DNA from: a virus
IMG/VR virus record: IMGVR_UViG_3300027977_000009
DNA length: 64,000 nucleotides
Reading direction: 5' to 3' (one strand)
In this document: in pieces, positions 29,524 through 33,130 of the stretch
Layout: each line of letters opens with the position of its first letter
Numbering within the stretch: the stretch's first letter is position 1
Notes under the pieces: generated by a model
Told to the model about the DNA's origin: nothing
What the model saw: the letters and a program-made list of their open reading frames with translations, nothing else
Databases searched by the model: none
Translations under genes and position numbers: made by a program

Positions 29524-29602
29524 TAAATAAGCGTGAGTCACGGAACTCCCATTCCCACTCACTCTAATAGTTGAAAAGGAACTACCAGCATGTCTATTTA
29601 TT
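29524..29602 (+). ncRNA. Conserved endonuclease-leader element, copy 2
   Basis: TAAATA; GTGAGT-CAC-GGAA-loop-TTCC-C-ACTCAC-TCTAA-TAGTT-GAAAAGG-AACTA-CCAGC-ATG. Confidence 0.75.
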
Positions 29603-30288
29603 CTGTCTTTACACCCTATACTTACTTTATTATGTGGCGAGGCACCAATACCAAATATTATGGCTGTCAGTACGGCAAAAAAGCTAACCCAGAGAACATA
29701 CTGACCGGTCGATATACTACATCGTCAGTTAGTGTCAATGAACATTGGCAAAAGTACGGGCCTCCAGATATAGTTGTTATTCATCGTACTTTTACTACAG
29801 CAGCAGAATGTAGATTATATGAGCATACTTACATAAAAAGAGTAAAGGCGGTGTATAAGGAAGATTGGCTTAATAAATCCGATAGTAAAGCAATTTTAAC
29901 AGACAACTACTCGGATTCTTCATGGAAGAATAGTCACAAAAGTAGGCGGAGGCACATGGAAGAGGATCCGGAATTTCGGAAATTTATGGTAGATAGATTC
30001 GTTAACCTGATGCAATCGGATGCAGCAAATTTAAAACGAAAAGAAACGTTCGTCCGAACAAAGCATTCGCAAGGAGAGAACAATCCTAGATTTGGTGCTA
30101 TACTGACCCCTGAAATTTTAACAAAAATCTCAGAGGCCAGAAAGAAACAATATTCTTTAAATAAATCATTGGCAAATAAGCTAAACCAAAAGAATCGTTC
30201 GTGTGAATATTGCGGCAAGTCAGGACTTAATGCTGGAAATTATAAAAGATGGCATGGAAATAAATGCAAAATAGCGGGAAATAAATAA
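29590..30288 (+). CDS. Free-standing Seg-like (GIY-YIG) homing endonuclease
   Basis: PYTYFI...KYYG, YE...WLNK, GENNPRFG, CEYCG...YKRWHGNKCK. Confidence 0.8.
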   Translation: MSIYSVFTPYTYFIMWRGTNTKYYGCQYGKKANPENILTGRYTTSSVSVNEHWQKYGPPDIVVIHRTFTTAAECRLYEHTYIKRVKAVYKEDWLNKSDSKAILTDNYSDSSWKNSHKSRRRHMEEDPEFRKFMVDRFVNLMQSDAANLKRKETFVRTKHSQGENNPRFGAILTPEILTKISEARKKQYSLNKSLANKLNQKNRSCEYCGKSGLNAGNYKRWHGNKCKIAGNK

Positions 30289-30307
30289 TTATTCCCCACT
30301 GATTCTA

Positions 30308-30787
30308 TTATAGAAACTCGCCGTCTTCTCTATGGCCTTGCCTGTATGCCATGTTTGATGGGGTTTCTCTCACTTCTACTTTCGCACACCAAACTCTTGC
30401 AGCCTCTGCCTCGCCGCAGGATGGAAGGAAAATAGTATTCACATATTCATACAGGTAATCTGCAAGTCCCTCGCATCCGGTCTTTTCAACCTCAATTATC
30501 TTTGCCAATCCTAATTCTCCTAGTTGCTTAATGGTATCATAGTATGGATCATCTTGGGCTAAAAGTAATACGTGGTCAAAATTATCTTCTAGGAAATCCT
30601 TAAGTGGCCGGAGCCCACCGTAATCAAAACACCAATTTCGGGCGTCAAGGTCATCGCATTCAAATTCAAATTTGAAAGACAATGCATAGCCGTGTATTAA
30701 ACGACAGTGACTATCCGCTCGCCATTGCCGATACGCCAGAGGCGCAAGGTGTGAATATTCTTTAGTTGATACATATTTTTTTGTCAT
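30308..30787 (-). CDS. queD: 6-carboxy-5,6,7,8-tetrahydropterin synthase
   Basis: HCRLIHGY, DYGGL, FDH, GCEGLA, VEVRET. Confidence 0.9.
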   Translation of the reverse strand: MTKKYVSTKEYSHLAPLAYRQWRADSHCRLIHGYALSFKFEFECDDLDARNWCFDYGGLRPLKDFLEDNFDHVLLLAQDDPYYDTIKQLGELGLAKIIEVEKTGCEGLADYLYEYVNTIFLPSCGEAEAARVWCAKVEVRETPSNMAYRQGHREDGEFL

Positions 30788-30851
30788 CTTTTTTCTCCTT
30801 TAGATGACACGCAGAATGTTTATAGTGGGAATGAGTGTCAAAGACCACTGT
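30782..30851 (-). promoter_or_regulatory. Pseudoknot riboswitch candidate, copy A (queD leader)
   Basis: P1 AGUGG/CCACU, P2 UGACAC/GUGUCA; alternative 8-bp hairpin UGUCAUCU/AGAUGACA over the start codon. Confidence 0.65.
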
Positions 30852-30993
30852 TAATAAGCATACCGACGATTGATGTAGTCAAGGATATCCTCAACTTCAC
30901 AAAAGCCTTCTGCATTATAAATCTGATTTAGATCAAGACCATGATCCTGATATCCTTCTCCGAGCATATTTGATAATAGTTGCCTGGTTGATT

Positions 30994-31071
30994 TGCCATA
31001 TTTTAATCTCCTATATTAGCATAACATAGGCGGCAGAATTTGTCAAGCGGGAATGACGCCAAGACCGCTGT
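30994..31071 (-). promoter_or_regulatory. Pseudoknot riboswitch candidate, copy B
   Basis: P1 AGCGG/CCGCU, P2 GGCG/CGCC, same UCUU, UCAUUC, UUCUGC linkers; alternative hairpin CCUAUGUUA/UAAUAUAGG over the SD. Confidence 0.65.
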
Positions 31072-31308
31072 TTATTTGATACGCTGAATAACTATGAATC
31101 CATGTCTGATCATAGTTGCATCGCATCCAATCCTATTTATCGTATTCTCAACCAGCTTAATCATTTTAATGCTGTTACCGCAGATGATAGTTAGTGGGAA
31201 CTCATTCTGGTTCATTAGAACGAAGTTCTCCACTAACAGATCAACATCCTGGTGTCTAACACCGTGAAGGTCTAGCTGGGCCATTGATATGATAAATTCC
31301 GTTAGCAC
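31072..31308 (-). CDS. Small Smr-domain-like protein
   Basis: LDLHG...IICGNS. Confidence 0.55.
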   Translation of the reverse strand: MLTEFIISMAQLDLHGVRHQDVDLLVENFVLMNQNEFPLTIICGNSIKMIKLVENTINRIGCDATMIRHGFIVIQRIK

Positions 31309-31982
31309 TTACTCATGCGAGCGATACTAAGAAACTCTGCACGAGCAGCAGGGTCAGACTTGAATCCGCCGCCCAGCTTACACGTTACTGTGCTTGACCC
31401 TGTATCTTCTACACCGCGCGACTTAACACAATAGTGCTGGGCATCAATCATGACTGCAACATCTTCGGTTTCAAGAATGTAGCAAAGAGTGTGAAATACC
31501 TGTTCAGTCAAACGCTCCTGAATCTGTGGCCGCTTGCTGAAATATTCAACAATACGATTGATCTTGGATAGACCAAGAACCTTTTCGTTGGGTACATACG
31601 CAACAGTAGCAAGACCGTCAATTTGGACAAAATGATGTTCACAGTTACTCATAACAATAATGTTACGCTCTACTACCATTTCATCGTAGTTCATCTTGTT
31701 GTCAACTGTAGTACACTTGGGAAATGCTTCGTAGTCGAGGCCCCAAAAGATTTCACCTACATACATTTTGGCAACACGCTTGGGAGTTTCAATAAGACTA
31801 TCATCACTTAGGTCAAGCCCTAAGGTTTCCATGATATCCTTAAACTTGCGTTCAATGATCTCAATTTTGTCGGTTCTGCTGAGATTGTTTTCGATAGTGG
31901 GAGTTTCAACCCCCATCTTTACAAGATGTTCATGGACGAGACGACCCAATTCGGGGTCACATTTATTTTTATTAAAAGACAT
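31302..31982 (-). CDS. folE: GTP cyclohydrolase I
   Basis: ETPKRVAKMY, CEHH, GLSKINR, PQIQERLT, HYCVKSRG. Confidence 0.95.
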   Translation of the reverse strand: MSFNKNKCDPELGRLVHEHLVKMGVETPTIENNLSRTDKIEIIERKFKDIMETLGLDLSDDSLIETPKRVAKMYVGEIFWGLDYEAFPKCTTVDNKMNYDEMVVERNIIVMSNCEHHFVQIDGLATVAYVPNEKVLGLSKINRIVEYFSKRPQIQERLTEQVFHTLCYILETEDVAVMIDAQHYCVKSRGVEDTGSSTVTCKLGGGFKSDPAARAEFLSIARMSKC

Positions 31983-32065: not shown

Positions 32066-33130
32066 TTATCGCTTGACGTATGTATCATTAAATTGTTTAT
32101 TTACCCGAACAAAGGTTGTGCATTTACTTAAGTGTTTAAGTTCGGAAGCCCCGGTATACGTACACGCACTTCTTAAACCGCCTAGAATATCCTTAACAGT
32201 ATCTTCTACCGGACCCTTATAAGGAATCTCTACCGTTCGTCCTTCACTACTACGATAGTCAGCAACACTGCCGTGATGCTTACGCATAGCCGAATCGGAA
32301 CTCATACCATAGAACTGTACTCGATATTCGCAATCGCGAATGGGTTTACCTAGTTCACTAGAATATTCAGTTTTTACCCAGCGTTTGAATATTTTTCCGC
32401 CGCCCTCGTCGTGGCCAGCAAGCATACCACCTAGCATCACGAAATCTGCACCGGCGCCGAATGCCTTAGCAACATCTCCTGGACAGGTGCAGCCTCCGTC
32501 GGCAATGATATGGCCACCAAGACCGTGAGCAGCATCACTGCACTCCACAATAGCACTAAGCTGAGGATAACCAACGCCAGTTTGAATACGAGTTGTGCAA
32601 ACGCTCCCTGGCCCGATGCCCACCTTAACAATATCTGCTCCACGTAAAATTAACTCCTGTGTCATGTCTGCGGTAACAACATTGCCCGCGATAATTGTGT
32701 GGCTGGGGTATTCTTTTCTAATCTTAGTAACAAAGTCACCAAAGTGTTCGCTATATCCGTTAGCAACATCAATACAGATAAAATGAATATAAGGATGCTT
32801 GTTTAATAGCATTTGTAAGCGTTCAAAGTCTCTGTCGCTTGTACCAGTGCTGATAGCATATCTATCAGAATTTAACCCAGGGGGAATTTCAATATTATCT
32901 TTGGTTAAGCAAGTAAATATGTCTTGAGTTTGCAATGCCAAAGCCATTTCGACGGTGCCTACGCCATCCATGTTAGCAGCCATAATAGGGATACCATTCC
33001 AAACATGACCGCTATGCTTAAATGTATAGGTTCGATGCAGATGTACGTCTTTACGGCTAGCTAGTGTTGACCTTTTTGGCCGAATCAACACGTCACTAAA
33101 GTCTAGTAGAATTTCGTTTTCAATATGCAT
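32066..33130 (-). CDS. guaC: GMP reductase
   Basis: [52 protein letters not shown]. Confidence 0.93.

Follow-up and report, generated by a model that had tools for sequence, protein, structure and literature searches.

The minus strand of the 64,000-nucleotide (nt) viral DNA analyzed here (the window) carries two copies, A and B, of an RNA element for which comparisons across many phage loci strongly support a real family of covarying H-type pseudoknots, ~45 nt in length. There is equally strong support for this being an uncatalogued cis-regulatory RNA family of phages. We lean toward viewing it as a cis-acting ON element that gates translation of QueD-family proteins in 7-deazaguanine-modifying phages, presumably in response to a ligand. 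QueD is the first committed enzyme of the 7-deazaguanine pathway.

An earlier note on this DNA had read both copies from the minus-strand letters at 30782-31071, and both are present there as it gave them. A pattern linking the two conserved boxes of the element matches only copies A and B in the window, with 0.01 matches expected by chance. The new covariance model that the note had called for was built in two versions, R1 and R2, which recovered copies A and B as the sole two in 64 kb (R1, 70 bits for copy B and 54.6 bits for copy A; R2, 58.3 bits for copy A and 41.8 bits for copy B), and a large family was found. The coordinates of both copies and of neighboring features are collected in the table.

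Table. Features of the two leader copies and of their surroundings in the window, in the direction of the minus strand
Feature	Position	Strand	Basis or detail
IMPDH/GMP-reductase-like gene	32066-33130	minus	
folE	31302-31982	minus	
78-aa ORF	31072-31308	minus	
Copy B aptamer	31029-31069	minus	sequence, model matches
Copy B P1	31065-31069 with 31046-31050	minus	
Copy B L1	31061-31064	minus	
Copy B P2, variable part	31057-31060 with 31029-31032	minus	
Copy B P2 extension	UCA 31054-31056 with UGC 31033-31035	minus	
Copy B L2	31051-31053	minus	
Copy B L3	31036-31045	minus	
Sigma-70-like promoter on copy B	31018-31046	minus	promoter scan, 10/12 matches
Promoter elements on copy B	-35 TTGACA 31041-31046; -10 TATGCT 31018-31023		-35 in L3; 17-nt spacer; -10 in hairpin loop, TG before it
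Copy B platform	30997-31030	minus	predicted folds
Copy B hairpin	CCUAUGUUA (31022-31030) / UAAUAUAGG (31010-31018)		SD AGGAG 31008-31012 covered; start codon 30997-30999
Stub ORF behind copy B, 23 codons	30928-30999	minus	alignment with L182
Copy A aptamer (pseudoknot core)	30805-30850	minus	sequence, model matches, family covariation
Copy A P1	30845-30849 with 30824-30828	minus	
Copy A L1 (UCUU)	30841-30844	minus	
Copy A P2, variable part	30835-30840 with 30805-30810	minus	
Copy A P2 extension	UCA 30832-30834 with UGC 30811-30813	minus	U.C mismatch, C-G, A-U
Copy A L2 (UUC)	30829-30831	minus	
Copy A L3 (AUAAACA+UUC)	30814-30823	minus	
Copy A platform	30782-30809	minus	MFE fold, energies, family-wide overlap
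Copy A hairpin	UGUCAUCU (30802-30809) / AGAUGACA (30782-30789)		queD AUG 30785-30787 buried
Copy A SD AAGGAG, in hairpin loop	30795-30800	minus	
queD, QueD/PTPS T-fold protein, 159 aa	30308-30787	minus	Pfam PTPS 5.9e-15; putatively controlled by copy A

IMG/VR pattern scans, together with a protein-based retrieval of queD loci, yielded at least 349 instances with at least 202 distinct cores on uncultured phage contigs, most instances having come by way of patterns that fix some nucleotides. Because RNA patterns bias the sample, we also picked 80 loci solely by similarity to a second QueD subfamily (the protein-retrieved sample), and the motif lies just upstream of the gene in 77 of them. At least 600 genes of this one subfamily were matched in IMG/VR, and nearly all of those sampled carry the motif. 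Across unrelated loci of phages and bacteria totaling 0.9 Mb, model R2 returned one true match and nothing else; from each of 100 member loci, it returned a single copy, save the window and L183, which hold two each. A pattern scan of 185,579 bacterial and archaeal species, represented by one genome each, gave 40 matches, of which a single one was genuine: L530 (CAYVBV010000018.1), a 25-kb contig in a Polynucleobacter MAG, in which the motif stands upstream of a QueD gene. The contig probably comes from a phage and was binned together with that phage's host, and it may offer a clue to host identity. The matches from our first loose pattern scan were for the most part chance matches, and blastn of two aptamers of the family against cultured phages returned chance matches only. 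The motif is missing from the six cultured phages whose QueD proteins are nearest, and these mostly have no room for one. Among close homologues of the window QueD, the leader was found in ~20 of 50 loci, leaving ~60% without it; given these loci and the six cultured phages, the control must be dispensable.

P1 (AGUGG/CCACU in copy A, AGCGG/CCGCU in copy B) and the variable part of P2 (UGACAC/GUGUCA and GGCG/CGCC, respectively) pair as the earlier note had described. Across the family, P1 has 5 bp of the form AGNGG/CCNCU, occurring as AGAGG/CCUCU, AGUGG/CCACU, AGCGG/CCGCU, ACCGG/CCGGU, and rarer others, with A-U, U-A, and C-G all seen as the middle pair. It is followed by L1, (U/A/C)CU plus 0 to 6 nt, and by the 5′ strand of P2, a helix of 7 to 10 positions made up of a variable part of 3 to 7 bp (69 distinct complementary pairings), a conserved U.C mismatch, a C-G pair, and then A-U or G-C. 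L2 is N(N)C, 2 to 3 nt long, with an invariant final C adjoining P1, and L3 is an A-rich 7-mer, NUANAAA, followed by YUC. The segments UCUU, UCAUUC, and UUCUGC, which had been called invariant, are so between copies A and B, but in the family they relax to (U/A/C)CU, UCR-N(N)C, and YUC-YGC. Nor are UCAUUC and UUCUGC wholly single stranded: UCA pairs with UGC, and since UCR abuts the 5′ strand of P2 and YGC abuts its 3′ strand, both boxes extend P2. In distinct cores, the third base of UCR faces the fourth base of YUCYGC as A:U (132 cores), G:C (41 cores), or A:C (1 core), and the sole A:C exception lies in front of a decayed gene.

The compensatory change in P1 and P2 first noticed between the two copies is borne out as strong covariation across the family in three alignments. 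A MAFFT alignment of 109 diverse cores, made with no fitting to structure, has 90.9% of cells paired and 265 compensatory cells; sliding the partners reduces pairing to 36 to 54%, and none of 500 shuffles reached the observed value. The model-fitted alignment has 95.4% of cells paired, and that of the protein-retrieved sample, also model fitted, has 94.8%, with nine pairs varying on both sides. For both helices overall, ~95% of cells are paired, compared to 30 to 55% with slid partners, and G.U pairs are common in P2. The protein-retrieved sample shows no variation at C28, A36, A42, U44, C45, G47, or C48, and conservation stands at 98% for U23 and C24, the U and C of UCR. The invariant positions comprise the L2 junction C, three L3 A's, the U-C that precedes P2, and the G-C in the P2 extension. 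The C at the end of L2 is present in all 61 distinct sequences of this sample, and positions 3, 5, and 7 of L3 are A in all distinct sequences; the first L1 nucleotide varies (U in 34, C in 15, and A in 10), and the end of L3 is an invariant U-C. A mutual-information scan for additional tertiary covariation recovered the known pairs and subgroup effects only.

The tie to queD-type genes that the window had suggested holds across the family, with ~97% of the at least 349 instances preceding a gene of the QueD/PTPS family. For 321 of 349, the downstream open reading frame (ORF) has a QueD signature, and most of the other 28 also precede QueD genes, which are of the canonical CxxxHGH type, cut by a contig end, or visibly decayed. 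In L487 (5004-5345), L492 (55-456), and L496, the motif stands before non-QueD-like genes with no NCBIfam match, and there the controlled gene may have been replaced. The downstream proteins belong to at least seven QueD subfamilies that match QueD/PTPS models, all under the equivalog cutoff. Several paralogous subfamilies occur, sometimes in tandem, and most phage QueD-like proteins, that of the window included, have SHCxxxHGY in place of the canonical CxxxHGH. The upstream genes fall into 44 unrelated clusters, and hence the element is tied to the downstream gene alone. It is typically intercistronic: where a codirectional upstream ORF is present, its stop codon lies a median of 10 nt before P1, with distances from -2 to >100 nt, while ~45% of instances have no same-strand upstream ORF of at least 60 codons ending nearby.

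Within the window, the minus strand reads, in order, the IMPDH/GMP-reductase-like gene, folE, the 78-amino-acid (aa) ORF, copy B, a short ORF, copy A, and queD, beyond which lie phosphoribosyltransferase, HhH-GPD glycosylase-like, and radical-SAM genes. The window QueD matches the NCBIfam QueD model at 4.5e-7, under the equivalog cutoff. A terminator-like hairpin with a T-rich tail (30273-30300, minus strand) directly follows the queD stop codon. The transcription unit may thus close with queD, and the next ORF (29590-30288) is on the opposite strand. An identical QueD within the same gene order was found on at least 24 contigs, up to ~80 kb long, in public assemblies, and these represent the same phage. 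In L629/L630 (1-2168), from the same phage, a gene for a family-B DNA polymerase adjoins the cluster; precomputed Pfam matches indicate that this gene carries intein-splicing domains and is apparently split into pieces.

Both copies had been placed upstream of queD, which is correct for copy A; copy B instead precedes a 23-codon stub with a five-codon QueD remnant. Through the copy B leader and 15 nt into the stub ORF, 92 of 93 nt match L182, and the sequences are unrelated beyond that point; on the L182 contig the matching leader is followed by an intact QueD paralogue of 167 aa. The stub matches this paralogue over its first five codons (MANQP), after which homology ends. Since identity to L182 ends after five codons and the window ORF stops at 23, copy B is, to judge from the sequence, the orphan relic of a recently deleted second QueD gene rather than an additional control on queD. 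Between copies A and B, an ORF of 38 aa (30854-30967, minus strand) looks by eye like the C-terminal end of an unrelated ORF found ahead of the motif in L408, and it seems to mark the opposite boundary of the deletion in which the second QueD gene was lost. We also considered this ORF as the C terminus of the deleted QueD paralogue and rejected the idea, as BLASTP against that paralogue gave no match.

We asked whether the helices of the pseudoknot compete with structures around the start codon, as had been proposed for both copies. In copy A, the predicted minimum-free-energy (MFE) fold includes the 8-bp UGUCAUCU/AGAUGACA helix that covers the AUG, and the 5′ arm of this hairpin has 5 nt in common with the 3′ strand of P2. 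The two structures are close in predicted energy, with -8.5 kcal/mol for the AUG hairpin (platform alone) versus -8.0 kcal/mol for the extended P2 duplex. Folding of copy B likewise predicts CCUAUGUUA/UAAUAUAGG over the Shine-Dalgarno (SD) sequence, with outer pairs to AUGGCA. When the platforms of 218 distinct leaders were folded alone, the 3′ strand of P2 was predicted to pair with the zone from SD to AUG in 208, and SD or AUG was paired in 215. Among 600 control leaders of other genes, taken from the same loci with the same lengths, pairing of the corresponding segment with this zone was predicted in 29.5%, versus 95% of motif leaders, and the median platform MFE was -3.8 kcal/mol, versus -6.9 kcal/mol for motif leaders. 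At least three unrelated platform designs occur, namely, CCUAUG/CAUAGG over the SD, ACUCC/GGAGU over the SD, and GUCAUC/GAUGAC over the AUG. P2 is located ~18 to 38 nt upstream of the AUG, and its formation is predicted to free the SD or AUG, so the claim that different platforms serve one ON logic, P2 against an occluding hairpin, extends from the two copies to the family at the level of predicted folds. Riboswitches are usually recognized by this combination, a conserved aptamer joined to variable platforms that share a logic. We regard as shown the structure of the element, its gene association, and the competition between helices in its predicted folds.

We infer that the element binds a ligand, on which the word "riboswitch" depends, and which way expression would respond. 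In the mechanism we propose, the ribosome-binding site would be free (ON) as long as the pseudoknot is held, and loss of the pseudoknot would allow the slightly more stable hairpin to close it (OFF). The most likely trigger would be a small molecule that presents a guanine-like face and locks the pseudoknot; 7-deazapurines and pterin intermediates such as H2NTP and CPH4 are candidates. QueD would be made only when this signal is present. In the window, copy A would gate queD, copy B being a deletion relic. Points against this mechanism are that ON control of biosynthetic genes is less common than feedback OFF control, that many related loci do without the leader, and that one subgroup carries a promoter inside the element (see below).

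The anatomy described would also suit a protein activator or QueD itself. In that case, the pseudoknot might be a binding site through which a translational regulator encoded by the phage, or QueD bound to its own message, activates or times QueD synthesis with no direct sensing of a small molecule. Phages do use such controls (Com of phage Mu on mom mRNA; RegA, gp32, and gp43 of phage T4), a QueD-family gene is the sole constant partner of the element, and the conserved loop nucleotides could equally be protein contacts. We nonetheless find this explanation unlikely, given that the genes served by the element span at least seven divergent QueD subfamilies, of both HGY and canonical HGH types, in very different neighborhoods and that no single co-conserved partner besides QueD is apparent. 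Autoregulation, moreover, is normally negative, yet the stabilized fold is predicted to open the ribosome site. Compact pseudoknots in which the C at the helix junction is invariant are also typical of small-molecule aptamers (PMC10622847). Nor does a ligand-independent device, whether an enhancer or standby site, an mRNA-stability element, a thermometer, or coupling to ribosomes on the upstream gene, seem to us at all likely. It is true that an upstream stop codon a median of 10 nt from the element would bring terminating ribosomes close enough to disturb P1 and that two folds so close in energy could be shifted by temperature or ions. However, a generic device would not be expected to keep many unpaired nucleotides invariant, to conserve a mismatch, or to be tied so strictly to one enzyme family, and the wide range of upstream distances and the ~45% of instances with no nearby same-strand ORF also count against this reading.

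The promoter on copy B raises a different possibility. An overlay of this kind, with TTGACA or TTTACA, 17 nt, TATAAT, and an upstream TG, is present in 44 of 54 distinct AGCGG-type copies (L119 to L214) and almost never in other types. Because this promoter lies inside the element, its transcripts would lack the aptamer; AGCGG DNA may serve both as an aptamer on read-through transcripts and as a promoter for aptamer-less ones. One could therefore ask whether a DNA-level signal, a promoter with an inverted-repeat operator, explains the conservation in place of RNA, as L3 and the hairpin loop of the AGCGG subgroup together spell out the promoter and P1 and P2 are inverted repeats in DNA. We consider this very improbable. 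It is largely excluded by the ~158 distinct AGAGG and AGUGG copies, copy A among them, that have no promoter yet keep every other feature, by the frequent G.U pairs in P2, and by the interleaving of the repeats, which makes a pseudoknot and not a palindrome; P2 also has a third partner, in the ribosome-binding site. A T4-type late promoter in L3 was considered and rejected: TATAAATA is carried by only 16 of 174 cores, and in the window it is not enriched (3 occurrences versus 5.5 expected), which also speaks against a DNA-level signal.

To our knowledge, the riboswitches known so far from phages copy bacterial classes. Phages seldom carry riboswitches (PMC9004378). The element described here is abundant in uncultured phages and is predicted to control the entry step of 7-deazaguanine DNA modification. 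Such modification is an anti-restriction system. Should a ligand be found, it would mean that phages sense metabolites in timing DNA modification, and the element would represent a new pterin or deazapurine aptamer with ON control in its pathway and a compact ~45-nt part for synthetic biology. If the ON mechanism is also true, this would amount to a viral case of feed-forward metabolic sensing.

A search with Rfam 15 gave no match at gathering score in the window and none at an E value of ≤10 at 30700-31150, and 11 other member loci had no match at an E value of ≤1. Identity with a known family, for which the earlier note had suggested this Infernal search, was thus not found at any threshold tried, and we found no description of the motif in the full-text literature. 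The loose likeness to preQ1-I that had been remarked on is a fair one, and this riboswitch (RF00522; types I to III, e.g., Bacillus subtilis queC, T. tengcongensis, and Escherichia coli) is the nearest by architecture. The two share an H-type pseudoknot, a 5-bp P1, an A-rich L3 after the 3′ strand of P1, translational control of genes of the same pathway, and an invariant C at the end of L2 adjoining P1, which in preQ1-I is the specificity base (PMC10622847). In preQ1-I, however, P2 is short, includes or abuts the SD, and acts to turn expression OFF, whereas P2 of the phage element is much longer (7 to 10 positions with a conserved U.C mismatch), lies apart from the SD, and is predicted to act in the ON direction. 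Furthermore, the phage L3 ends in YUC and not in a ligand-reading A, the first L1 nucleotide varies where preQ1-I has a conserved U, no RF00522 match was obtained even at an E value of ≤10, and the phage family is virtually absent from bacterial genomes.

Control of mom in phage Mu, where the Com protein opens a hairpin that locks the ribosome site, offers another parallel, in that a DNA-modification gene of a phage has its ribosome site locked in a hairpin until a trans factor opens it; there, however, the factor is a protein, and there is neither a pseudoknot nor a link to QueD. THF-II (the folE motif) resembles the phage element in regulating a pterin branch-point gene via translation but differs in being a rod-like hairpin with OFF control, found in bacteria upstream of folE, and the phage element has no sequence or model similarity to it. 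In THF-II, a pterin ring, 7-deazaguanine, or dihydroneopterin is held between a facing conserved C and U, between stacked helices (PMC9881143). By analogy, the conserved U.C in P2 could be a second candidate pocket beside the preQ1-I-like junction. We see about an even chance that the element is a new riboswitch class, seemingly confined to phages, with a preQ1-I-like pseudoknot, a long P2, and a U.C site, that binds a pterin intermediate or 7-deazapurine and turns QueD synthesis ON. It displays the general features of riboswitches, namely, a covarying aptamer, association with genes of one pathway, and a platform predicted to be mutually exclusive with the aptamer. Among known riboswitches, the PRPP and ZTP classes provide precedents in which a precursor or shortage signal turns biosynthetic genes ON, in place of OFF control by an end product; their folds and ligands are unrelated to those considered here, and the analogy is a functional one.
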